Positions 21,844 to 60,611 of a stretch of DNA of 64,000 nt are shown one piece after another. The notes beneath the pieces were generated by a model. The model saw only the letters and a list, made by a program, of their open reading frames with translations. It was not told the origin of the DNA and did no database searches. Every line of letters starts with the position of its first letter. The first letter of the stretch is position 1. Position numbers and translations under genes: made by a program. The DNA lies in assembly GCF_902713615.1 (NCBI RefSeq), contig NC_052152.1:85821228-85885227 (forward strand). Reading direction: 5' to 3'. The stretch comes from Scyliorhinus canicula (Eukaryota).

Positions 21844-24260
21844 GAACAAAGAAAAGTACAGCATAGGAACAGGCCCTTCGGCCGTCCAAGCCTGAGCTGA
21901 CCATGCTGTCCTTCGAGCCTAAAACCGTCTACACTTCCGGGGGCCATATCCATTGAAACCCATCTTATTCATGTATTTGTTGCCCCTTAAACGTCACTTT
22001 CATATCTGCTTCCACCAACTCCTCTGGCAGCGAGTTCCAGGCACCCGCTATCCTCTGTGTAAAAAAACTTCACTTGCACATCTCCTCTAAACTTTGCCTC
22101 TCACACCTTAAACCTATGTCCCCTAGTAATTGGCTCTTCCGCACTGGAAAAAAGCTTTTGACTATCTACTCTGTCCATAGCCCTCATAATCTTGGAGACT
22201 TCTATCAGGTCACCCCTTAACCTCTGTCATTCCAGTGAGAACAAACCAAGTTTATCCAACCTCTCCTCATAGCTAATGCTCTCCACACCAGGCAACATCC
22301 TGGTAAATCTCTTCTGTATCCTCTCCAAAACCTCCATATCCTTCTGGTAGTGTGGCAGCTAGAATTGAACACTATATTCCAAATATGGCCCAACCAAAGT
22401 TCTGTATAGCACCTGCATGACTTAACTATTTCTATACTCAGTGCATCGCCTGATGAAGGCAAGCATGCCATATGCTTTCTTGACTATCTTCTTGACCTGC
22501 GTTGCCACTTTCAGTGATCTGTGGTCTTGTATACCCAGATCCCTCTGCCTGTCTGTACTCTTAAGGGTTATGCCCTATATTGTATATTTCCCACTTGTAT
22601 TGCACCTTCCGAAATACATTACCTCACATTTGTCCGGATTAAACTCCATCTGTCATCTCTCGGTCCAAGTCTCCAATCGATCTATATCCTGCCATATCCT
22701 CCGACAGTCCTCATCACTATCTGCAATTCCACCAACCCTTGTGTCATCCGCAAACTTACTAATCAGACCAGATACATTTCCCTCCAAATCATTTACATAT
22801 ACTACAAACAGCAAAGATCCCAGCACTGAACCCTGTGGAACGCCACTAGTCATAGCTTCCATTCAGAAAAACACCCTTCCACTGCTACCCTCTGTCCTCT
22901 ATGACCGAGCCAGTTCTGTATCCAACTTGCCAGTTCACCTCTGATTCCATGTGACTTCACATTTTATATCAGTCTGCCATAAGGGACATTGTCCGTGTAG
23001 ACAACATCCACTGCCCTACCTTCATCAATAATCTTCATTACTTCATTGAAAAACTCGATCAAGTTAATGAGACATGACCTCCTCTTCACAAAACCATGCT
23101 ACCTCTTGCTAAAACGTCCATATGCTTCCAAATGAGAGTAAATCCTGTCTTGCAGAATCCTCTCTAATAATTTCCCTTCCACTGACGTCAGGCTCACCAC
23201 CCTGTAATTACCTGTATTATCCCTGCTACCCTTCTTTTTGTCTCTTTTTTTAAATACATTTTGAGTACCAAATTCTTTTTTTTCAAATTAAGGGGCAATT
23301 TAGCATGGCCAGTTCATCTACCCTGCACATCTTTTTGGGTTGTGGAGATGAGACCCACACAAGCATGAGGAGACTGTGCAAACTCCACATGGACAGTGAC
23401 CCAGGTCCTCGGCGCCGTGAGGCAGCGTCACTGTGCTGCTCCTTACTACCATTCTTAAACAAAGGAACAACATTAGCGATTCTCCAGTCCTCTGGGGCTG
23501 CACCTATAGCCAGTGAGGATATTAACATTTCTGTCAAGGCCTCAGCAATATCCTCCCTTGCCTCGCTCAGTATTCTGGGGTTGATCCCATCAGGCTCTGG
23601 GACTTCTCTACATTAATGCTTTTCAAGATGCCCAACACCTCTTCCTTTTTGATCTCCATGTGACCCAGACTATCTACGCATTCTTCCCCAGACTTATCAT
23701 CCACCAAGTCCTTCTCTTTGGTGAATCCTGATGGAAAGTACACATTCAGTACCTTGCCCATTTGCTCTGGCTCCACGCATAGATTCCCTCCCCTGTCCTT
23801 GACTGGGAGACCCTTTTCCTGCCTAAAGCCTTGGGATTTTCCTTAATTCACCTTCAGTGACCTCTTTTAGCCCTCCTGACTCCTTGCTTAAGTTCCTTCC
23901 TACTTTCCTTATATTTTTCATGGGCTTCGTCTGTTCTCCGCCTTCTAGCCCTTACAAATGCTTCCCTTTTTCTTTTGGACTAGGCTCACAATATCCCTCA
24001 TTGTCTAAAGTTCCCGAAACTTGCCATACTTATCCTTCTTCCTCATAGGAGCATGCCGGTCCTGAATTCCTTCTTCCTCACAGGAGCATGCTGGTCCTGA
24101 ATTCCTTCTTCCTCACAGGAGCATGCTGGTCCTGAATTCCTTCTTCCTCACAGGAGCATGCTGGTCCTGAATTCCTATCAACTGACATTTAAAAGCCTCC
24201 CACATGCCAGATGTTGATTTATCCTCAAACATCCACCCCCAATCTAGATTCTTCTGTTCC
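21844..24260 (-). mobile_element. CR1 (HER1-like) LINE, 5'-truncated and decayed; SINE fragment at about 23285-23440
   Basis: GVPQGSVLG..KFADDT (22653-22862), PEDWRIANVVPLFK (23283-23537), CR1 3' UTR near 21850. Confidence 0.92.
24034..24175. repeat. 35-bp tandem repeat, 4 copies
   Basis: CCTTCTTCCTCACAGGAGCATGCTGGTCCTGAATT starting at 24034, 24069, 24104 and 24139. Confidence 0.92.
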
Positions 24261-29480: not shown

Positions 29481-32400
29481 TGCACCTATTAAGACCTTAC
29501 GGTGTCCCAACGCATGATACAGCCAACAAATTCATTTTGAGGTGTAGTCACTCTTGCAATGTAGAAACGCTTGGGCAAGCAGTGGCTTTTTTAGAAAAAA
29601 TAATTTGTTCTTTATGTGTCCGGACCATCGGTGTGATCAGATTTTCTCGTGGAACACTAGCGATGTGTTTTGTATGAAATCATTCTTTCTTTGAGTATTG
29701 ATTTTCTCCACTAAGACATATGTTTGCCATCAGTTTAATTTTCTTCCTCCAAAACAATCCTTCACAAATTTGACATGTCTGTTTCCCAGTCATTGCTGCT
29801 TTAGTTTATTGCAATTCAGCTTCAGTATGGCGGCGTTGGGAAATGAGCCAGGGTTCCTGCTCCTGATTTCTACTTAGTGATTTGTGCAGTTAAGTGGACA
29901 TTAGGCAACAGATTGATGTCCTCCAGTTAAACACCCAGCCAGTACTTAATGTGAAAGGTCCCACATGAAGAACAGTCACTTGAGTGAACGACCGAAGGCC
30001 AGTTGGCGACTATAGAACCTATTCCAGCAAACATCTCCAGGATATGAGATGGGAAAATTGGACGGAGAAAGGATTTATTGAGAGGGTACAAGATATTTTT
30101 AAATTTGAAGGCAAGTTGACTGCCTCTTCAGACAAAGTAATGTTACAAATGTTATCTTTCCTGATGGTAATTACCAGGGTTACATATCAATTACATTATA
30201 GAAGGTTCAGTTTAGATGCACAGCTTTGACTATACAAAAAACAATTCTGGAGCTTAAGCAGAAAAATATTTAAATATATATGCCTCATTTAGTTTAATTG
30301 CTGCTTCCATTTAAGAGTATGCAATTGAAGGCCTGGCTAATCTAATTAAACTTAATTGGAATTTAATTGCTGCCTGGTGTAAGAAATAACTGTGAAGAGA
30401 CACTTGTTGTTGGTGATTTGGTACAAGGAAACCCATGCTTAATTACCTGTGGCATCACATGGAGAGGAATGGGTGTGAGTGATGAATCTGGATCTTGATT
30501 TATTTGATTTTTAAACCTTCCCCCCCCTACAAGTTGTTCTATGGTAAACTAACATGAATCTAAGTTGCCCATTTATCTTGCTTCAGTGTGCACTCAATAA
30601 GGCTACATGTAATTGATAAATAGTTCCCCTTATGGGAGAGAAAAATATTCTGTTGGTCTCTTCAGTTAAGTAGTAGCTCCTTCTAATTGATAAGAACTCT
30701 GGCAGAATTTGCAGGAATTGCCCAATTAGAGCAAGCTGATGTGGGAATCATGTTGCTCAGGAAGTACTCCAGAGCTTCTCAGCCTTGCGCTTGACTACAA
30801 ATATAAGCAGTTGCACCCTGTGATGTCTAGCTATGATCAGAGACTGAATAAAGTTTGGTTCCTTTCTCCAGTAAGTTAAAGTGATTTAATTGTGACATAT
30901 TTAAAATCATGTAGGACATTGACATGTCGACTCCAGTAGCTTAGTAATAAGTTACAGGTGGAGTAATCCTGAAGCCTGAGCTATTGATCCAGAGATACAA
31001 ACTCGAGTCTGACCACAGTATTAGAAAATTTTAAATGCAATTAAATAAATAAAATCAGGCTAGCATTAGTAATGGTGATCAAGAATCTTCCAGATTATCA
31101 TTCAATAATGTCCTTTAGAGGTGGAAATCTACCATCCTTTTCCAGTCTGGGCCTATATGTGGTTCTAGACCCTCAGCAATGTGTTTGACTCAACTGCCTT
31201 CTGAAATAGCCTAGAAAGCCACTCAGTTGTATCCAAGTTAGCTTCTCAAGGCATAGATGGATAAAATGCTGGCCTCCTTACCAGCGATACCGAAATAGTG
31301 TGAATGAATTCAACAGAAATAAACAAGGTCCCTCCAGTAGGGAAATCCAAAACAATGGGATGTGATCATGAAATCAGAATAAGGTGGTTAAAAATAAACC
31401 TCCTTAATACACAATGCATTCTGAGGCTATAGAAACACTGTCCCGGCAGGTCATAGGAAAAAGGGATCAGATGAGATGATTAAAGGTGATTGATACTTAG
31501 TTGGGAAGCAGTAAGATTAAAGAATGTGGAGTAAATTGAGAGATGAGAAGATTGAGCTGTCATGGCTAACAAAATGATAAGTGATTGCCTTGGCCTGTGT
31601 GTACATAATCTCAATTCTGAAAATCTCATCATAACTATAACAACAATGACAGCTTTAAACTGAAGAGTCCACTGGTTTAAGTTCAGGACATGATTTTTAA
31701 TAATCCAGTCAATAGTCTGACAAAACAGGAGAAATGTAATAATATATTGTTGCAGCTTTTCATCTCTATTTCTCTATTTTGCTGGTGATTTGACATAACT
31801 GTCAGCACTGAGCAGCACAAATCAAGCACTCCAGATTATTGAACAGATGTGCACATTGTGACACTGACACTGTCAAACCTTGGACCGTACACTCTGAATT
31901 AAATTTAAAAGTCTGGTTCAGCTTGCATTGTGTGAACAATGCATTATTTCTGCCTATTGCAATATATATTCCATAAACCCGCCTAGATGCACTCACTATA
32001 TCTCAAAGAAGAATTCTACTTGTCAGTGCTGTCACATTCTTCAACTTAAATGAGAACTAAAAAAAGCAATCAATTAATGAGCCTTCAAGCATCAACTAAT
32101 CTACTGGACTGAAATGCAAACAGTAACAGTAGCAACCATATAATCGCCTCATCTAGCAGGGGATCTCATCTGATATTCACTGATATTCATTCTGAATTCA
32201 CTGGTGGCGATGCTGCATTGCCACATTCAGGTTTAAATGCGCACAAACTATAGTTGTAAGCAGCCAGTTTAACTTGCACTGTGAATTTAATGAGAAAAGA
32301 TGCAATTACAAAATTAAAAAACCTCCAACAACTGTTGTGTTCTATGTGGTAATGATGTACACAGAACATCTAGTTCTTTAACTGGAAAGATGATTTATTA

Positions 32401-32685
32401 ACTATCACATGGAACGATAACTAACGAGCTATAATACAGACGATAACTAATAAATGATTTCAGTGGATTCTCCTGGAGCTACTCGAAATGCAACCAACCT
32501 CTTGTACGACTTACTACTAACTGGCGAGTGTCTAGAGTCACAAGATAGATCTCTCGCCACCAGCTTGTTGGAGGTTGCATCACTAACTATATACAGAACT
32601 GTACATAGGCATGTCACCACATCCCCCTTTCTCTGAAACTGTTAACATTTACAAACAAATGTAACAGTGTCTTACAAAACATAAT

Positions 32686-33692
32686 CAGTTACGAGTGGCG
32701 TACCACAAGGACCTGTTCTGGGGCCGTTGCTGTTTGTCATTTTTATAAATGACCTAGAGGAGGGCGCAGAAGGATGGGTGAGTAAATTTGCAGACGACAC
32801 TAAAGTCGGTGGTGTTGTAGACAGTGCGGAAGGATGTTGCAGGTTACAGAGGGACATAGATAAGCTGCAGAGCTGGGCTGAGAGGTGGCAAATGGAGTTT
32901 AATGTGGAGAAGTGTGAGGTGATTCACTTTGGAAAGAATAACAGAAATGTGGAATATTTGGCTAATGGTAAAATTCTTGGCAGTGTGGATGAGCAGAGGG
33001 ATCTCGGTGTCCATGTACATAGATCCCTGAAAGTTGCCACCCAGGTTGATAGGGTTGTGAAGAAGGCCTATGGTGTGTTGGCCTTTATTGGTAGAGGGAT
33101 TGAGTTCCGGAGCCATGAGGTCATGTTGCAGTTGTACAAAACTCTAGTACGGCCGCATTTGGAGTATTGCGTACAGTTCTGGTCGCCTCATTATAGGAAG
33201 GACGTGGAAGCTTTGGAACGGGTGCAGAGGAGATTTACCAGGATGTTGCCTGGTATGGAGGGAAAATCTTATGAGGAAAGGCTGATGGACTTGAGGTTGT
33301 TTTCGTTAGAGAGAAGAAGGTTAAGAGGTGACTTAATAGAGGCATACAAAATGATCAGAGGGTTAGATAGGGTGGACAGCGAGAGCCTTCTCCCGCGGAT
33401 GGAGGTGGCTAGCACGAGGGGACATAGCCTTAAATTGAGGGGTAATAGATATAGGACAGAGGTCAGAGGTGGGTTTTTTACGCAAAGAGTGGTGAGGCCG
33501 TGGAATGCCCTACCTGCAACAGTAGTGAACTCGCCAACATTGAGGGCATTTAAAAATTTATTGGATAAGCATATGGATGATAAGGGCATAGTGTAGGTTA
33601 GATGGCCTTTAGATTTTTTTTCCATGTCGGTGCAACATCGAGGGCCGAAGGGCCTGTACTGCGCTGTATCGTTCTATGTTCTATGTTCTATG
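32686..33692 (+). mobile_element. Young 5'-truncated CR1 LINE with an open RT C-terminal ORF (32727-33596)
   Basis: 289-aa uninterrupted ORF with KFADDTK, LYKTLVRPHLEYC and LFSLERRRLRGDLI; (GTTCTAT)n tail. Confidence 0.95.
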
Positions 33693-33819
33693 ATCTGCAT
33701 CATAATTTTAAACATGCCATAATAATAATGTGTACAAATGCAACTGTGCTTTACACAACATGATATGCCTGATAATATTATGCATGTCCCTTGTACACAG
33801 CTTATTGGATATTCACAAC

Positions 33820-35240
33820 GACATCATCCCGTTGGTCTTCTGAACTTTGATTGGCTACTCAATGCTGCTCTAACTTCCGGAAGACCAGTTTTCTGACTGG
33901 TCTTTTTTGCATCACCGACTTTTGTAGCCTTCTGACGTGATGCATCCTGAAGACCGGTTTTCTTGCTGGTCTTCTCTGCATCACCAGCTTTTTGTAACAT
34001 GATGCTTCCTATTTTGTCTTAGTGTGCTGATAAGCCATCAATGAACACACGACGAGTGGTGAACGTAACTGAGGCTTTAATAAACTAAACGGAAAGTCTC
34101 CTGGCCTCGGATCCCGAACTGAGGCAGCGGGAGAGACTAGCCACCTGTATACCAAGCCCCAGGGGAGGCGGAGCCGGCAGGCAGTGGTTTACCACATTAC
34201 ATATAATACAGTGGCAGTTTACCACAATACACATAATATATACTACAGTGGTCCGGCGCCAGCAGGGACAAGCCCAGGCATGTAACAGTACAACAGTACA
34301 ATACAATACAGTGGTTTACCACATGTACTTTCTTACCTGTTGGCCACATCGCCGATGCCTTCCTCTTTACTGTCGCGGCTGCTTCCTGATCGACCAACTG
34401 TATCTTCAACTCTTCTTCTCTTCCCCTTCCTTCATGGGAGGGATCCTCTAACGGCGTCTCCTTTTCTTTTTGATTTTAGCGGCATACTTCTTGCTGTTGG
34501 ACTCTGCCTTGGGACTAGTTGCTTCTGGTGCTTTTGCCATAGTCACTGCTTTTGGATCGTCTGCAGTACAAGCTGATTCTGGCTCTTCTGCCACCATGTC
34601 TGATTCCGGAGCCTTAGCTGGATCAAGGAGTTTTGGTTAATCCATGGTGCTTAAACTTGAATGCTGAACTGCGTGCCCATCACCTACTGAACCATCCAGT
34701 GTCGGCTTACTTTTAGATGATTGCGCCGTTGCATTTGAGTCTGCAACTTCAGGAGCGATCTGCAAATCCTCGCATTCCGGTATCTTAGTTGGATCAATGT
34801 TAGGCTTTCGTTCTCCACCTCGTGTTTTCACCTCAATTTGTGGCTCATCCTCACTTGATATGATGTGTGGTTCGTATTTTGTTGGGAAGCTGAGCAGTGG
34901 CTCATCCTCACCCGATATGACGATGCATGCTTTGTCTTTCGTTGTAGAACTGCATGCAGGTGTATCCATTTGCCCTTGCACGTCTTTTGGTGGAGAGGCC
35001 TTGAATATTGGGGTGTCCGTGACAGGAACCATTCTGTGGGCATGGGATGATTCATCGTACTGCCAAAATGGGGATTATTTCTTCAGTTATCAGTTGGCTG
35101 CTCACAGTTGATTTGCTCTCAACTGATGTATCTGCTGCTGCAATCTCTTTCAGCCTCTACACATATCACTTTAAAGGTTTCACACTTACCATTGTCCTGC
35201 ACAGATTGGGTGCTCCTTGTGATCACCTCATCACCGCCGC
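33820..35240 (-). pseudogene. Decayed low-complexity ORF inside the Mag-like element (SIM-like repeats, basic cluster, Lys-rich repeats)
   Basis: ORF 34637-35032 continues in frame past its TAA to KIKKKRRRR; internal repeats have periods of 57 and 69 bp, both multiples of 3. Confidence 0.5.
34028..34323 (-). mobile_element. Solo LTR nested in the Mag-like element
   Basis: TG...CA ends; flanks TGTGC / TGTAC (4 of 5 TSD match); three near-identical CAGTGGTTTACCACA-type motifs; ATTAAA on the minus strand. Confidence 0.7.
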
Positions 35241-35361
35241 AAAACTACCTGAATAGCATTTCATAGTCGTCCTCATCTGGCTCATCATCTGAGTCTCCAC
35301 TTCCCTCATTGAAATCATGGTCGTTGTAATTATCATTGTCGTAATCATCATCGGAGATATC

Positions 35362-36061
35362 ATAGAATAATAGAATTTACAGTGCAGAAGGAGGCTATTC
35401 AGCCCATCGAGTCTGCACCGACCCTTGGAAGGAGCACCCTATCTAAGCCCCAAGCCGCCAACCTGTCCCCTTGATCCCCATAACCCAGTAACCCCACCTT
35501 ACCTTTTTGGACACTAAGGACAATTTAGAATGGCCAATCCACCTAACCTGCAAGCCTTTGGACTGTGGGAGGAAACCGGAGCACCCGGAGGAAACCCACG
35601 CGGAAACCCATGGGGAAACGTGCAGACTCCACACAGCGCCGGCCCTAGGGTTGCTGGCGCCCCAGGCAAGCTGAACTTCGGCGCCCTTGGGGGGGAGGGG
35701 GGGCAGGGGGGGGGCTGGCTGGGGGCGGGGGCGGAGATGGGGGGTGGGGCCGAGAGGGGGGGCCCGGCGGACCGGGGGGGGGCGGGGGGACGGACCCGCG
35801 GGGGGGGGGCGGACCGAGGGGGGGCCGCCCTGGGGGAGGGCGGCCACCGCGCATGCACTGGTTGGCACCGGCCCAACTGCGCATGCGCGGGACCCGAGTC
35901 TCTGGCGCCCCCTAGCACATGGCGCCCCGGGCGACTGCCCGAGTTGCCGGTGCCTTGAGCCGGCCCTGACTCCACATAGACAGTGTCCAAGCCAGGAATC
36001 GAACCTGGGACTCTGGAGCTGTGAGGCAACAGCGCTACCCACTGTGCTACCGTGCTGCCCA
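35362..36061 (-). mobile_element. HE1-like SINE inserted into the NAP1L1 acidic tail
   Basis: Reverse-complement SINE head at about 36060 and tail at about 35365; split by a MITE. Confidence 0.9.
35634..35968. mobile_element. hAT-type MITE (335 bp) inserted in the SINE
   Basis: TIRs CAGCGCCGGC / GCCGGCCCTG; perfect 8-bp TSD ACTCCACA at 35626-35633 and 35969-35976. Confidence 0.9.
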
Positions 36062-36839
36062 CTATCTGCATCATCATCTGCAATGGCTTCTCCTGTAAAG
36101 TATGACATTGCTTGTGGAATTATGTGTTCATGCAAGAAATGACCAATTTCAAAGTCAGCAGCAAGTCTTGCTGCAGAACATTCATCCAGCTCTCCATGCT
36201 CTGGAACTTCAGGAAGACTGAAGAAATTGAAGAGTTATTTGGTACAGTTTTTGTTACTGTTCTACTAGTGCCCCGACCCTTATGCTCCCGCTTCATTTCA
36301 ATGGTTTTCAATGTGACGGTTTTTCCTTTCTACAGTCGATCTGGCACCCTGTGCAAGCCGTGATTTCTGGTTCATCAAAGAATAAAAAGTCTAACTTGTC
36401 AGGCTGCGACTCCACCTGGTACGTTTTTGTGACTAACTCATTTGTGAAATACTCATTTGGCTCAAACGTAAACTCCAGAGTAAAGGTCATTGGCTGTCCT
36501 GATGCTGAACATTTTACATTTACATCTTGTAGATGCTTTAGGACAGCTCATCATACTCCTGTATCATGCTTCTGAGCAAATTCACATTTTTAAAGACTGT
36601 TAAACAGAATTATGGAATTCCATTTGGTTCCCCCAGCTCTTCATTTGGTTTATCTTCTTCCACTTTAACTTTTGCTTGTATCTCATCAGATAACTGCGCC
36701 ATTATATCTCATTGCCAGTCGCCATGATCCTGTTATTTTGCTGGTAGGGTCAGCTGGGTTTCGAACAGTCGTGCCAGATTGGCTTCAGCAGTCACAGGAT
36801 GTGGAATTTTACGCTTGTTGAAGAGACCAGAGAGTGTCT

Positions 36840-38071
36840 GGGATGTATAACCGCTCAACTAGGTTCAGGGCCTCACGTGCGTCTACTTGTATGATGGACT
36901 TGTGTTCCGTGTCCACAATCGAAAATGGTACGATGTGTCTTCTTTTGTGTACCCATGCTTTGAGCTCACATGCTCCCAGCATCGCAATTTCATTCCCATT
37001 GTAGTCGTTCAGCAGTCTTGTTTGATTGACGACTTTCGGTTTAACTCGCAGCCCATTTCAAATCAGACAAACTGAGGAGGTTGGCCCTTGCTCCCATGTC
37101 GAGTTTGCATTTGATCAATGTGTCATTCAGCATCACTGGAATTGTCCATCTGTCTTAGATTGTATCAGCATCATCATCACTATTACAGCAACTGGTCAGT
37201 AAGACTTTTCCACTTTTCATATTCAGACTCATCAAGACCTAAGTCAGAATTAGATAAATAAAAAACAGGTCTTCAATGCACGTCTCATTAATTGCATTGA
37301 CTAACCCTGTCTGGTCCACTATTGGATACGAAAAATATTGCTTCACAAAGTTATTTGTACAGACAAACTGGACATTGTGTTGGCCCATGTCGATTGCCAC
37401 ATCGCTGGCATAAAATGGTGGATCCAGTCAGCTTAAAATGGCAGCCCACACTGAGACTACGCATTTTATTCAACTGCACCACGGTGCTGATGGCACTGGC
37501 GTTTACTTTCAGATTGGCGCCAAAATGTTTCAGGTTGAGCGTACTAATCGGCTGTGCAACTAGCTCGCTTGCATGTCAAATCTTGATAATGTTTACTAAT
37601 TTCAGGTTGTCTTCTTCCCTCAATAACCTCTCACATACTTTATCATTCAATATCCTGAATACTATCTGGTTGTGGATCATGCATGAATTTTAAGTACTAA
37701 AATTGCACGACTGCGCCTTCAACCGCAAGTCGGTTAAAAAGCTATCAAAAGATTTGCCTGCTTTTTGGGTACGTGTATGAAATATATAACGTTCAAATAT
37801 TTGATTTTTCTGAGGAGAGCAATGCCAATCAAAGTACTTTATTACTTCATCGAAGCTCTTGCTTTCTTCTTTGCTGTTGAACGCGAAGGTGTTGTATATT
37901 TCTATTGCTTGCGGACCTGCTACTGTGAGCAGCAACGCAATACGCCTCTCATCAGACTGTGTCTGCAGGCCAAGGGCTGCAACATAGAGTCTGAATTGCT
38001 GCTTGAAAATGTGCCAATTTTCATATGCGGTACCCCTTACTGGAAGTGGTGGGTGCCTTCAAACCTTCCAT
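36840..38071 (-). pseudogene. Mag-like gag plus aspartic protease, decayed
   Basis: Gag NWHIFKQQF..LLLTVAGPQAIEIYNTF..FERYIFHTRTQ and knuckle CQRCGNRH...C; PR KLDMGARANLL (DTG degenerate), DYNGNEIAMLGACEL, FSIVD...ALNLVERL. Confidence 0.82.
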
Positions 38072-38704
38072 CTCTAACTTCACAGTCTTTCTATGTGTTG
38101 AGTTCCGATTGCCCGTAATTCACCAGATAGGCAGAAGAATTTTCTTTTTTCCCTCTTCAGCCTGTTCCATCCTCCTTGATCCTTTGTTATGTTTAATTGT
38201 TCTGCACCCCTGGTACCATGTTGTGTTCTGTGTTATGGCCATGGTAATGATGTACACAGAACATCTAGTTCTTTAACTAGAAAGATGATTTATTAACTAA
38301 CTCATGGGATGATAACTAACAAGCTATAATACAGAAAATAACTAATAAATCAATTCAGTGAATTCTCCTGGAGCTACTCCTAAGTGCGACCAACCTCTTG
38401 TATGACTTACTACCAGCTGGCGAGTGTGTTGAGTCACATGATAGATCTCTATCGCCCCCCAGCTGGTTGGAGGTCGCATCTCTAACTACAGAACTGTGCA
38501 CAGGCATATCACCACAATCATGTGATCCTACCTCAATAACCCTTTAACCATTGCTGGGAACTGCAGCATATACAATAACACTAATACCACAATGATTTAT
38601 TTGGGAAGGTTCCCTTTGCTTTTGTTGGGACTTTTTATGCTTATCTTGTGCTTTTTAAAATTTGACTGAACCATGTATCTTTCCTTGGAACTACCAGATC
38701 ATTT

Positions 38705-41400
38705 GTACAAGTCAGGATGGTGCATGGTGTGGAGGGGAACTTTGAGGTGTTCCCATGGATCTACTACCCTTGTCCTTTTAGGTGGTAGAGGTCACGGGTT
38801 TGGAAGGTGCTGTTGAAGAAGCCTTGGTGAGTTGCTGCAATGAATATTGTATCCACTGCTGCCACAGTATGTCATTGGTAGAGGGAGTGTATGTTTAAAG
38901 TGGTGAATGGGATGCCGGTCAAGTGGACTGCTTTGTCCTGGATGCTCTCAAACATCTTGAATGCAGTTGGAAACACACTAATCCAGGCATCCACCACTCC
39001 TGACTTGTGCCTTCTAGATGGTGGACAGGCTTTGGAGAGTCAGCAGGTGAATTATTATCACAGAATTCCCAATGTCTGACCAGCTCGTCTGGGCACACTA
39101 TTTATATGGCCAGTCTTGTTCAGTTTCAAGTCAATGGTAACCTCCATGATGTTGATAGTGGGTGGTTCTGCAATAGCAATGCTGTTGAATGTGAATGTCA
39201 AGGGAAGGTGGTTCTCTCTTGTTGAAATGATCAATACCTGGCACTTCTGTGGTACGAATATTACTTGCCACATCAGCCCAAGCCTGAATATAGTCCAGGT
39301 CTTGCTGTCAGATGTATATGGACTGCTCCAGTATGTGAGAAATCACAAATCACCAATACTGACCACAAATGGTAATAACATTATGCAATCACCTGCGAAC
39401 ATCAGCACTTCTGACCTAATATTGGAGGCAAGGTTATTGTTGAAGCAGCTGAAGATGGTTGAGCCTAACTACCCTGAGGAACTCCTGCAGCGATGTCCTG
39501 AGGCTGGGATGTTTGGGATCCAAAACCAAAACCTTATTTCTTTGTGCTAGGTATGAATGATTGGACAGTATATACCCTGTTTTCCTGGGTTCCTTGATGC
39601 CGTACTCTGTCAAATGCTGCCTTGATGTCAAGGGCAGTCACTCGCTGCCCACCTTTTTAGTTCAGCTCTTTTGTTCATGTTTGAGCCAAAGCTATAATGA
39701 GATAAGGTGATGAGTGCTCTAGCAGAAGCCATGCTGAGTGCCAGTCAGCAGGTTATTGCCGAGTAAGTGTTGCTTATAAGGATTGTCGATGCCACCTTCC
39801 ATCATTTTCATGATTGAGAGTATACTGATTGGTGATAACTGGCCGGATTGGATTTTCCCTGTTTTTTGTGAACAGGACATACTTGGACAATGTGTAACAT
39901 TGTCATGTGTTGTCGCTGTATTGGAACGGCTTGGCTAGGGGTGTAACTGGCTCTGGAACCTCTGTCCCACTGAAATGGATTAACCATTTCTGGCAGAAGG
40001 TGTTTGCCAATGCATCAAATGTTTGTACTGACATGCTAGGCTCATGAGGATGGTGATGTTTTGGGAATCTCTACCTCTAGTTAATGTTTGATTGTCCACC
40101 ACCATTCATAACTGGATGTGACAGGATTGCAGACCTTTGATCTGATCCATTGGTTGTGGGACCACTTAGCTTAGCTCTATCTATTGCATATTGCTTCCGC
40201 TGTTTGGCATGCATATAGTCCTGTGTCCTAGCTTCACCAGGTTAGCAACACATTTTTTGGGTGGACCTGATGCTGCTTCTTGCATGCACCCTGCCCTCCT
40301 CCGTGAAATAGGGTTGATGGTAATGGCAGAATGATGGAAATGCAGTCCGTGAGATTAAAGTTTGTGGTTGAATGCAATGTTGTTAATGCTGATGATTCAC
40401 TGCCTCCATTTTGAGCTGTTTAATCTGTTCTGAATCCATCCCATTGAGCACTGTGATAGTAACACATGATATGATGAATGGTTTCTTGAGTGTGAAGATC
40501 GGACTTTGTCTCCAAGGACTATACAGTGGTCACTTACCAGTACTGCCATGGAAAGATGCATCTGCAAAAGATAGATTGGTGAGGGCATGATTTTCTCTCT
40601 TGGTGGTTCCCTCAATACCTGCGGCAGGCCCAACTGGACAGGAATGTCCTTGAGTACTTGGCCAGCTCAGTTAATCGTGAGCGACTCAGGCACTCTTAGT
40701 GATAGACATTTGAAATCTTCCACTCAGAGTACATTCTGTGCGCTTGCCACCTTCCGTGCTTCCAAGTGCTGTTCAACATGAAGGAGCACTGATTCGGTGG
40801 GTGGTAATGAGCAAGAGTTTCCCTTGTCTATGTTTGGAGTACTGATTCGGTGGGTGGTAATGAGCAAGAGTTTCCCTTGTCTATGTTTGGAGTACTGATT
40901 CGGTAGGTGGTAATGAGCAAGAGTTTCCCTTGTCCATGTTTGACTGATGCCATGAGATTTCTTGGAGTCCAGAGTCAATGCTGAGGATTCCCGAGAAAAC
41001 TCCATCCCCACTGTATACCATAGTGCCACCGCCCAGGCTGATTCAGTCTTGCCAGTGGAATAGGACTGACCCAGAGATGGTGATGGAGGAGTCTGGGACT
41101 TTGTAAGTTATGATTCGGTCACTATGATGGTATCAGGCTGTTACTTGACTAATCTGCGAGGCAGGTCCCCAAACTTTGGCTCAAATTTCCAGATGTTAGT
41201 GAGGAGGGCTCTGGAGGGACTGGGCATGTTTTGCCGTTGTCATTTCTGGTGCAGCAGATTGTTGCTGGTCAGTTCACCGATTTTAATTCTTTTTTGACTT
41301 TTCTGCAGCAGTTCAGTACAACACGCAGAGTGACTTGTGGGCTATTTCAGACGGCAGTTCAGAGTCTGCCACATTGGTGTTTATGACAATCCAATAGTTT
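38705..41400 (-). mobile_element. Decayed CR1/L2-group LINE (EN plus RT), same family as 1920-2830
   Basis: Minus-strand LDIKAAFDRV, WQVIFVPQKCQVLIIS and LLLITTH...VLLHVEQHLE..RKVASAQNVL. Confidence 0.8.
40788..40941. repeat. 53-bp tandem repeat, 3 copies
   Basis: ACTGATTCGGTGGGTGGTAATGAGCAAGAGTTTCCCTTGTCTATGTTTGGAGT at 40788, 40841 and 40894. Confidence 0.92.
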
Positions 41401-59613: not shown

Positions 59614-60611
59614 GTTTACAGGAAGGAAGGGGGAGGTACTATGCAGGAAGGAGGTGGAGGAATAGTATACAGGAAGTAATGGGGAGGGGGTAGTATACAG
59701 GAAGAAAGGGGGGTGGTGAATATAGGAAGGAGGTGGGGAGTAGTCTCAAGAAAGGAGGTGGGGTAGTATACAGGAAGGAGGTTGGGGTATAGTATACAGG
59801 AAGGAGGTTGGGGTATAGTATACAGGAAGGAGGGTGGGGTATAGTATACAGGAAGGAGGGTGGGGTATAGTATACAGGAAGGAGGGTGGGGTATAGTATA
59901 CAGGAAGGAGGGTGGGGTATAGTATACAGGAAGGAGGGTGGGGTATAGTATACAGGAAGGAGGGTGGGGTATAGTATACAGGAAGGAGGTGGGGTATAGT
60001 ATACAGGAAGGAGGTGGGGTATAGTATACAGGAAGGAGGTTGGGGTATAGTATACAGGAAGGAGGGTGGGGTATAGTATACAGGAAGGAGGGTGGGGTAT
60101 AGTATACAGGAAGGAGGGTGGGGTATAGTATACAGGAAGGAGGTGGGGTATAGTATACAGGAAGGAGGTGGGGTATAGTATACAGGAAGGAGGGTGGGGT
60201 ATAGTATACAGGAAGGAGGTGGGAAATAGTATACAGGAAGGAGGGTGGGGTATAGTATACAGGATGGAGGGTGGGGTATAGTATACAGGAAGGAGGGTGG
60301 GGTATAGTATACAGGAAGGAGGGTGGGGTATAGTATACAGGAAGGAGGGTGGGGTATAGTATACAGGAAGAAGGTGGGGGAATAGTACACAGGAAGGAGG
60401 GTGGGGTATAGTACACAGGAAGGAGGGTGGGGTATAGTACACAGGAAGGAGGGTGGGGTATAGTATACAGGAAGGAGGGTGGGGTATAGTATACAGGAAG
60501 GAGGGTGGGGTATAGTATACAGGAAGGAGGGTGGGGTATAGTATACAGGAAGGAGGGTGGGGTATAGTATACAGGAAGGAGGTTGGGGAATAGTATACAG
60601 GAAGGAGGGTG
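59614..60611. repeat. G-rich 25-26-bp minisatellite, roughly 35-38 units
   Basis: Unit AGGAAGGAGGGTGGGGTATAGTATAC; degenerate at the left, homogeneous at the right. Confidence 0.97.

Follow-up and report, generated by a model that had tools for sequence, protein, structure and literature searches.

A captured NAP1L1 piece is kept under purifying selection in a pol-less Ty3/gypsy retrotransposon family of the catshark Scyliorhinus canicula

Results

The window analysed here, a 64,000-nucleotide stretch of catshark DNA (contig NC_052152.1, positions 85,821,228 to 85,885,227 of the forward strand), contains at 32333..38516 a degraded LTR element on the minus strand (Table 1). As had been proposed in an earlier, sequence-only reading, LTR, PBS, gag, protease (PR), NAP, tail, polypurine tract (PPT) and LTR follow one another in this order on that strand. 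The assignment of the PBS to a Leu-type tRNA holds as well: the site is complementary to the 3' end of tRNA-Leu(TAA), and a pattern search for PBS-matching tRNA 3' ends called tRNA-Leu(taa) at two of four loci. The LTR pair aligns with 258 matches and 27 mismatches (K2P 0.10), and both gag and protease are interrupted by stops and frameshifts. At the nucleotide level, the protease is 68% identical to the Pfam-matched protease of a related element, locus L103. A Pfam profile search found the NAP domain PF00956 in two parts (E 2.8e-22 and 5.5e-12), and over 670 bp this region is 80% identical to the spliced exons of the host gene. In agreement with the earlier reading, the window copy contained no motif of reverse transcriptase (RT), RNase H or integrase (IN); the pol of two relatives matched only the inserted SINE and, weakly, one site in the inner solo LTR.

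Table 1. Features of the element copy in the window, ordered along the minus strand
Feature	Positions	Strand	Remarks
5' LTR	38219..38516	-	298 bp, TG...CA ends
PBS, tRNA-Leu(TAA) type	38207..38218	-	
gag	37290..38180	-	capsid-like region and two CCHC knuckles (family level); broken here; ends approximate
Aspartic protease	36835..37150	-	broken here; 5' end approximate
Private 103 bp at PR-NAP junction	36732..36834	-	12 bp in most copies
Captured intron-free NAP1L1 piece	36069..36731	-	from the 3' part of host exon 6 through exon 12; contains accessory region and earmuff domain
SINE	35355..36062	-	later insertion, splits NAP acidic end
GC-rich MITE	35634..35968	.	nested in SINE; terminal inverted repeats and 8-bp duplication; same piece in locus L015
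NAP acidic end (host exons 12-13) and family-specific low-complexity tail	34324..35352	-	same frame across family
Solo LTR, other family	34028..34323	-	5-bp duplication with one mismatch
Tail end (basic part) and 3' untranslated region	33697..34027	-	
Young CR1-type LINE, 3' fragment	32685..33696	+	opposite-strand insertion; RVT_1 E 4.5e-12 in 303-aa open frame
Polypurine tract	32622..32634	-	
3' LTR	32333..32621	-	289 bp

The ends of the element had been placed correctly from the sequence alone, but its length of 6.2 kb is owed to later insertions (the SINE with its nested MITE, the solo LTR of another family and the CR1 fragment), and copies without them measure about 3.9-4.3 kb. Likewise, NAP does lie close behind the protease, but the spacer of about 100 bp is absent from 71 of 71 other loci and is therefore private to the window copy, whereas 37 of 49 other copies share a 5' junction with a spacing of 12 bp. 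The remodelled acidic tail is present, yet the SINE now stands between this tail and the NAP core, and the tail stems in part from host exons 12-13; the first two letters of the tail sequence as formerly quoted are the end of the SINE.

The captured piece is intron-free from host exon 6 through exon 13, seven introns having been lost. The host NAP1L1 gene, located on C20, has GT-AG introns; family copies match its exons 7-10, 12 and 13 and run uninterrupted across the exon joins. With full-length NAP1L1 as query, all 107 of 107 matches began at residue 128 or later, and the capture starts near residue 130. For the N-terminal 100 residues, all 13 of 13 scored candidates belonged to the host gene or its paralogue. 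The dimerisation helix (domain I) is absent from the piece and the histone-binding earmuff (domain II) is retained. The earlier description of an intronless sense-strand core without N-terminus, poly-A or target-site duplication (TSD) of its own was thus borne out, the tail standing in place of poly-A. As in LTR-mediated retrocopies, intron-free host mRNA replaces the internal ORFs. Phylogenetically, the four element proteins form one clade (100/100) inside cartilaginous-fish NAP1L1 (97/98). An origin from NAP1L4 was rejected (p-AU 0.0004 for that grouping), as was a LINE-driven processed pseudogene, because of the 5' junction shared among copies and the tail instead of poly-A.

Compared with the host protein, 41 of 224 NAP residues (about 18%) differ. 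Conservation was lowest for basic residues (19 of 31 kept), with 40/52 acidic, 56/67 hydrophobic and 65/74 other residues kept; acidic residues are no better kept than the hydrophobic and other ones, which fits selection for folding. In the part of PMC9128123 available, D125, E129, D295 and D296 of C. elegans NAP1 are described to contact H2A-H2B from one monomer, and in yeast Nap1 both monomers take part in H2A-H2B binding. Most copies keep the host residues that align to these four positions. The predicted model of a natural NAP piece (P0295) matched human NAP1L1 best (7un6, E 3.2e-20), an earmuff result to be expected from a model built on an alignment of NAP proteins. A predicted complex of P0295 with H2A-H2B, computed without alignment, scored 0.00 and is weighed neither for nor against binding. 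After NAP follows a new tail of about 330 residues with a basic stretch (33% K+R). Beyond exon 13, the tail gave no Pfam family, no usable Atlas match and no counterpart in either the host locus or the pol-bearing relatives, nor among the proteins compared.

The element in the window is one decayed member of a large, multi-copy, pol-less and non-autonomous Ty3/gypsy family of about 4 kb, with the layout LTR, tRNA-Leu PBS, gag, protease, NAP1L1 piece, acidic tail, PPT and LTR. Both sides of the junction were present at 40 of 40 scored places. Among 39 copies selected by their protease, NAP followed directly in 37, and RT, RNase H or integrase was found downstream of PR in none, so that the suspected mobilised family is confirmed. 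In six elements with both ends found, flanking bases matched at 5/5, 4/5, 4/5, 3/5, 2/5 (the window copy) and 0/5 positions; 5-bp TSDs are hence seen in the family, and the window copy has no clear one. The D, T/S and G columns of the protease are kept in 35/45, 33/44 and 38/45 copies, and a natural Gag stretch (locus L087) found Gag/Retrotrans_gag/zf-CCHC clusters as its look-alikes in the Atlas (score 0.95). Two CCHC column sets are present in the family gag; the family may belong to the Mag-like gypsy clade, for which a double CCHC knuckle is characteristic.

Every copy examined was broken, the longest open stretch in the 22 copies measured being at most 295 codons. NCBI annotation names several copies NAP1L1 genes, and seven element-like proteins were found among the catshark annotations. 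Contigs of a second species cover 30 of 30 bins of a copy, but the two listed pieces that cross the junction reach over it by less than 31 letters, which we do not take as proof. A search of sequencing runs listed no RNA run with the element. When three RNA runs were mapped on the internal part of one copy (82% likeness), depth in gag and PR bins was mostly below 2-3. Depth of up to 400 over NAP was rejected as element expression, since the loose read ends continue into host exon sequence and the reads hence are those of the host; the runs therefore count neither for nor against expression of the element.

Furthermore, a second subfamily has lost the protease by a deletion that leaves Gag and NAP in frame, and it has been amplified: the deletion was spanned by 38 of 40 matches. 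NAP is missing through internal deletion from 4 of 20 hand-picked gag loci. Two of these four junctions were searched, and each gave 1/40 matches, namely the query itself.

A sister family (loci L103, L105 and L099) has a pol with the order PR-RT-RNase H-IN, in which RNase H and H2C2 scored above the Pfam cut-off and the RT and rve pieces below it. Both families agree in PBS start, PPT and LTR ends; their gag and PR are 65-70% identical, and their LTRs agree in 193 of 308 columns. The Ty3/gypsy placement of the RT-less NAP family thus rests on its likeness to the sister family in gag, PR and LTR. The sister family is likely the helper of the NAP family, although at these identities it may not be the true one. 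Set beside L103, the capture junction lies just past the end of PR; L103 is a relative and not an identified direct parent, and the family copies themselves diverge by 6-19% from the column yardstick.

Compared column by column, the gag-PR-NAP-tail frame has no column in which most copies carry a stop, while the other frames have 6-48 per region. The suggested Gag-PR-NAP1 polyprotein is thus supported at the family level. Changes private to single copies are neutral (dN/dS 0.94-1.19 across regions). In contrast, shared non-CpG variants gave ratios of 0.11 for gag, 0.12 for PR, 0.19 for NAP and 0.74 for the tail; for NAP, Fisher p was 1.6e-7, and 4.5e-5 when the count was restricted to departures from the host state. 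The constraint on NAP is close to that on gag and PR. Between the main and PR-less groups, a branch of element-only evolution, NAP has dN 0.135 and dS 0.459, i.e., a ratio of 0.29 (CI 0.19-0.48). We used these two tests in place of the host-versus-family ratio of 0.25, which is not relied on alone because synonymous change on the host lineage inflates dS. With values of 0.2-0.3 on element lineages, and not 1, the outcome that the sequence-only reading had named against itself (a junction unique to this locus with normal pol elsewhere, or dN/dS of about 1 without a frame) was obtained on neither count.

Discussion

In this mobile family, the NAP1L1 piece is almost certainly an in-frame cargo under selection. 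The fate of deletions speaks against a passively carried cargo, as the PR deletion was amplified (38/40) while the two NAP deletions stayed unique (1/40 each). On balance, we lean towards the view that this pol-less family, which kept NAP under purifying selection, was mobilised by its sister and used the piece as a particle-borne histone chaperone. Against this view weigh the absent dimerisation helix, given that both monomers of yeast Nap1 take part in H2A-H2B binding, the 41 residues changed from the host, and the fact that copies without NAP did arise. Template switching onto NAP1L1 mRNA just past the protease would have created the chimera, whose frame might then have been read into a single protein, Gag-(PR)-NAP-tail, with about 1,050 residues. 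This protein could co-assemble with the Gag-Pol of the helper and favour its own RNA, and such a preference would allow selection to act on the cargo in cis. Earmuff and acidic tail may bind H2A-H2B, either as a monomer or arrayed on Gag, and might help to place histones on the new cDNA or the target site or to take them off. What NAP did for the element is an inference, and this includes the earlier proposal that it modulated chromatin or silencing. A chaperone activity probably was useful to the element; that histones were the client we rate at just short of even chances. Only tentatively do we suggest that the earmuff entered the particle on Gag, acted on histones at the element's cDNA or target site, and was prized above the element's own protease, which one subfamily has discarded.

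NAP could also have acted on the element's own basic proteins, such as nucleocapsid or helper integrase, by chaperoning them or aiding their import, or it could have been a nuclear localisation signal (NLS); that it served in one of these ways, and not for histones, we regard as rather unlikely. From the available part of PMC13255070, human Nap1 uses its acidic face to bind HIV-1 Rev and break up its aggregates, and the Nap1 NLS is the beta5-beta6 hairpin, which lies inside the captured piece and is largely kept; the nuclear export signal on helix 2 lies outside it. In the PR-less subfamily, moreover, NAP remains joined to Gag. However, Rev binding depends on the dimer and on helix 1, neither of which was captured, the basic stretch of the tail could already act as NLS, and basic residues are the least kept class of NAP.

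We give a similarly low probability to NAP being a mere passenger, folded and soluble enough not to spoil the polyprotein and kept as a long frame for RNA stability, with its chaperone activity unused. Hydrophobic and small residues are indeed conserved no less than acidic ones, the unstructured front part evolved faster (ratio 0.46, CI 0.13-1.42) than the core (0.19), and the tail frame stayed open with near-neutral residues. Yet a passenger could be dropped, and both tested NAP-less junctions are unique while the PR-less one spread. Its ratio of 0.29 was held over a dS of 0.46 of element-only evolution, near the constraint on gag and PR.

Alternatively, the captured sequence might act as an RNA decoy, in that small-RNA silencing of the element would also strike NAP1L1, as proposed for captured pieces of piRNA genes in telomeric elements of Drosophila, with TART/nxf2, aub and piwi as examples (PMC13534243). 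This is very improbable and largely refuted by the synonymous divergence of NAP from the host (dS 0.39 and 0.92) with amino acids kept, i.e., constraint at the protein level. Still less credible is a processed pseudogene in a dead element or one host-domesticated copy: the window copy is old and broken and NCBI labels several copies NAP1L1, but a junction common to many loci and the missing poly-A refute the pseudogene, pol was replaced and not interrupted, the singleton ratio is about 1 everywhere, and no open stretch in 22 copies exceeds 295 codons.

LTR capture of host genes is usually seen as an accident that gives retrocopies to the host. Here the direction is reversed: the cargo is held by selection on the element lineage about as strongly as gag and has outlasted the protease. 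In population-genetic terms, this is evidence for retrotransposons being able to take up a chromatin protein of their host as an accessory domain. The family also offers a natural and presumably monomeric NAP1 fragment, with which the effect of histone loading on cDNA or target upon integration and silencing becomes testable. Furthermore, the family accounts for the mis-annotated "NAP1L1 genes" in the catshark annotations. That LTR elements can capture host mRNA is already known, vertebrates included. The statement that no vertebrate LTR family with NAP cargo had been described stands in so far as the precedents found carry other cargoes; a selected, amplified histone-chaperone fusion in an LTR element was not found in the open literature. 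Repbase or Dfam might already list the family without remark.

Acutely transforming retroviruses carry in-frame Gag-onc fusions that replace pol; they depend on helpers, are short-lived and somatic, and are selected via cell proliferation. The shark family, in contrast, is a germline retrotransposon whose cargo was retained over long evolution. Compared with NAP1L1/Nap1 chaperones, as far as the available parts of PMC13255070 and PMC9128123 describe them, the element protein appears to share the earmuff fold, the NLS hairpin, the acidic C-terminal stretch and the C. elegans-type histone contacts. It differs by the loss of helices 1-2 (dimerisation, export signal), by about 18% changed residues, and by Gag-PR and the tail of about 330 residues. 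Maize Bs1, as cited in the accessible text of PMC5131818 and PMC5408686, likewise is an LTR element whose hybrid ORF contains transduced pieces of host mRNA, but it is a plant element and its pieces are three metabolic/transport gene fragments. In CrocERV29 (KIT-ligand) and CrocERV31 (nectin3), captured host mRNA was multiplied under purifying selection as in the shark (PMC4299795, in the portion available). These, however, are retroviruses that kept pol, with a cell-surface ligand in a separate ORF or replacing env and with 6-9 copies, whereas the shark family is a pol-less Ty3/gypsy element with a nuclear chaperone domain fused to Gag. Similar too are the LTR-mediated retrocopies of zebrafish, chicken and mammals (Tan et al. 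2016, PMC5131818, as far as its available text goes), in which a partial spliced mRNA also replaces the internal ORFs between two LTRs in sense orientation without poly-A and can be remobilised as a non-autonomous element. Those retrocopies are young and present in single or few copies, and 14 of 21 older ones have lost their function; the shark family, in contrast, is large and divided into subfamilies, its cargo is fused in frame to Gag, and purifying selection acts on branches that belong to the element only.

Results

The element in the window and its family

The sequence-only reading of an LTR retrotransposon on the minus strand, in which a NAP1L1 piece takes the place of pol, is borne out in its parts (table below). 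RT, RNase H and integrase are indeed absent from the window element, two of its open stretches match Pfam NAP, and tRNA-Leu(TAA) pairs with its PBS. A PBS-derived pattern was found at five places, with tRNA-Leu(taa) called at two of the four loci returned. The copy is dead, with stops and frameshifts in gag, protease (PR) and NAP alike, and insertion of a MITE-bearing SINE, a solo LTR and a CR1 fragment lengthened it by about 2 kb; copies free of insertions are about 3.9–4.3 kb long. The closest named proteins are those of Scyliorhinus catsharks.

In the species' own genome the PR–NAP junction is common to many loci, as had been anticipated: both sides were present in all 40 places scored out of 1,184 candidates. 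With a protease-only query, used so that copies were not selected on NAP, NAP followed in 37 of 39 other matches; one of the remaining two had the tail without NAP, the other was cut off, and pol followed the protease in none of the 39. The earlier claim that NAP lies within about 150 bp of the protease holds as close adjacency (37 of 49 copies have a spacing of 12 bp), but the 103 bp spacing itself is private to the window copy. Full-length shark NAP1L1 retrieved 2,693 candidates, and 107 of 107 matches (104 places scored) began at residue 128 or beyond. As candidate counts are not copy numbers, the safe claim is that more than 100 places were seen and that there are probably many hundreds; the loci analysed were the best-scoring ones, hence older or odd subfamilies are under-sampled. 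LTR divergence in the family has a median K2P of 0.17 (16 LTR pairs). Flanks of six elements with both ends located agree in 5, 4, 4, 3, 2 and 0 of 5 bases, the value of 2 being that of the window copy. The NAP1L1-bearing element family is real.

Features of the window and of related loci (bare coordinates, window positions)
Feature	Position	Strand	Remarks
Element copy	38516-32333	minus
Two LTRs of this copy		minus	298 bp and 289 bp; K2P 0.10 between them
Other parts of this copy		minus	PBS, gag, protease, NAP1L1 piece, tail, PPT
Tail beyond host exon 13	33697-35250		about 330 codons; open frame, near-neutral residues
MITE	35634-35968		GC-rich; terminal inverted repeats; 8-bp duplication; nested in SINE; presumably hAT-like
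Solo LTR	34028-34323		unrelated family, within the element
CR1 fragment	33267-33696		98.8% identical over 430 bp to L024:4780-5207
26-bp tandem unit	59617-60611		about 39 copies; yields long spurious open frames
Smaller tandem arrays	24033-24176; 40783-40942
Full pol-bearing sister element	L103:773-6177		5.4 kb; gag-PR-RT-RNase H-IN
PR-less subfamily loci	G000:C5:119.79 Mb (L088), L080, L089, L108-L127		gag end joined in frame to NAP through the final few PR codons
Tail segments with RNA reads	L013:4849-4959; L013:5293-5514		depth up to 58 and 20

A piece similar to the nested MITE is present in locus L015 and apparently also in L051. The matching CR1 fragment at L024 sits in another family copy at a different insertion position; to judge from their sequences, the two fragments belong to a very young LINE family. 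Several NCBI models named NAP1L1 or uncharacterised resemble element copies, labelled S. canicula (P0001, P0295, P0229, P0223) or S. torazame (P0041, P0122, P0124); P0041 fuses gag and NAP in one model, and P0201 (S. torazame) is a further truncated NAP1L1-like model and candidate copy.

Origin of the cargo and the pol-bearing relative

For the N-terminal 100 residues of NAP1L1, the host gene on C20 and the paralogous gene on C9 were the sole matches. Host NAP1L1 has GT-AG introns across the whole captured region, and the element piece begins within exon 6, lacks introns as far as exon 12 and also contains exon 13; by this structure the cargo is evidently derived from a spliced NAP1L1 mRNA. 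Comparison with a pol-bearing relative places the switch point just past the protease end. Four element proteins form a single clade within cartilaginous-fish NAP1L1, and grouping with NAP1L4 was rejected. Six sites set the S. canicula host apart from three other sharks used for comparison; the host-specific residue is carried by 0–2 of about 50 copies at five of them and by 13 of 56 at the sixth. Such rarity implies that the capture is older than most of those host changes. Annotations of S. canicula and of S. torazame each contain element-like proteins.

The integrase sequence of locus L095 retrieved a pol-bearing family (854 candidates), and gag and PR resembled those of the NAP family at four of ten retrieved loci. 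Sister-family loci are L103, L099, L105 and L095, with L095 and L099 being internally deleted derivatives. L103 is 66–68% identical to the NAP family in gag and PR; PBS start, PPT and LTR ends agree. Sister-family LTR pairs are 85–87% identical, which makes the two families roughly equal in age. The sister family could plausibly supply RT and integrase in trans and was probably the helper.

Reading frame and selection

Natural copies were aligned over three overlapping regions (46, 48 and 34 rows), and the stop share was taken per codon column. The proposed single gag-PR-NAP frame is open at family level: not one majority-stop column occurs from the gag start through PR and NAP and on across 394 codon columns in the third region (some 1,050 columns in total), and no column exceeds a stop share of 36%. 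The other two frames have 30 + 36, 39 + 14 and 48 + 7 majority-stop columns per region. The open frame is the same in all three alignments and within NAP is that of the host; when 224 codons were left to drift neutrally by 0.3 changes per site, 0.5% of simulated runs stayed stop-free. The D-T/S-G columns of the protease are retained in most copies, as are two CCHC knuckles. The tail beyond exon 13, whose composition shifts from acidic to basic, is possibly a second captured piece.

Variants were scored against the commonest codon per column, with CpG-prone codons excluded. Singletons, which are changes arising after insertion, had N/S values of 0.94 (gag), 1.00 (PR), 1.19 (NAP) and 0.95 (tail), and variants common to at least 15% of copies 0.11, 0.12, 0.19 and 0.74, respectively. 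For NAP the contrast is strong (Fisher p 1.6e-7) and persists at 10% and 25% thresholds; for the tail it is not significant. Restricted to changes away from the host state, the NAP contrast still gives p 4.5e-5, and fresh recapture of host mRNA therefore does not account for it. From host NAP1L1 to the family, dN/dS is below 1 (dN 0.098, dS 0.386, host-lineage change included). The codon patterns indicate that selection acted during the mobile phase of the family.

In a gag sample of 20 matches hand-picked out of 150, NAP was present in 12 and absent by internal deletion in four; three matches were cut short and one was pol-derived. Three loci of this sample have an identical protease deletion, a junction spanned by 38 of 40 scored matches (619 candidates), whereas the two of four NAP-less junctions examined occurred once each. 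Gag and NAP again share a single open frame in 22 aligned copies of this PR-less subfamily, with shared-variant ratios of 0.16 (gag) and 0.22 (NAP; p 0.0014). Between the main and PR-less subfamilies, NAP has dN 0.135 and dS 0.459 (ratio 0.29, CI 0.19–0.48); in a three-point split nearly all divergence falls on the PR-less branch, the slightly negative main arm showing how noisy the split is.

In three RNA runs host reads covered NAP, with little signal over gag or PR, a pattern in keeping with an extinct family though short of proof. The reads on tail segments of L013, another family locus, probably reflect single copies within other transcripts.

Discussion

In the simplest account, a template switch onto NAP1L1 mRNA would have replaced pol, by chance in frame, followed by helper-dependent spread of the NAP-bearing element. 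As selection on an element-borne protein requires a benefit to the encoding RNA, we infer that the Gag-(PR)-NAP-tail protein entered particles together with its own RNA. PR could free NAP from the main-subfamily polyprotein; in the PR-less subfamily NAP would remain on Gag unless cut by a helper protease.

Most likely the NAP domain acted as a chaperone, with histones, on newly made cDNA or at the target site, as the leading candidate clients. The element captured the accessory region, earmuff, hairpin and acidic end and omitted helices 1–2; the long helix 2 is described as serving dimer formation and carrying the export signal (PMC13255070). A natural copy was modelled as an earmuff fold, the expected outcome given its alignment. 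C. elegans NAP1 is reported to bind H2A-H2B via one monomer, through D125, E129, E132, D295 and D296, and yeast Nap1 to engage it with both monomers (PMC9128123). Most copies retain the host residues aligned to the C. elegans contacts, the E132 position being Q in the shark host. As a class, acidic residues fared no better than others, which counts against a histone-surface reading. That NAP served another basic client or nuclear import is unlikely in our view; the NLS is placed in the retained β5-β6 hairpin (PMC13255070). Constraint from folding alone, with which the even retention of acidic residues would agree, seems similarly improbable. An RNA decoy role and a plain pseudogene are both scarcely tenable.

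Our literature search, with repeat databases and subscription papers outside its scope, returned nothing relevant on a NAP1L1 cargo or family. Partial-mRNA capture by LTR elements is described as established in animals in PMC5131818, which also cites the maize LTR element Bs1. In crocodilian ERVs, captured copies of KIT-ligand and nectin3 are reported to be under purifying selection (PMC4299795), and Drosophila telomeric elements to have captured piRNA-gene fragments (PMC13534243). Distinctive here are the in-frame fusion of a chromatin chaperone domain to Gag, the measurement of selection along a branch confined to the element, and a subfamily that lost its protease while keeping NAP.
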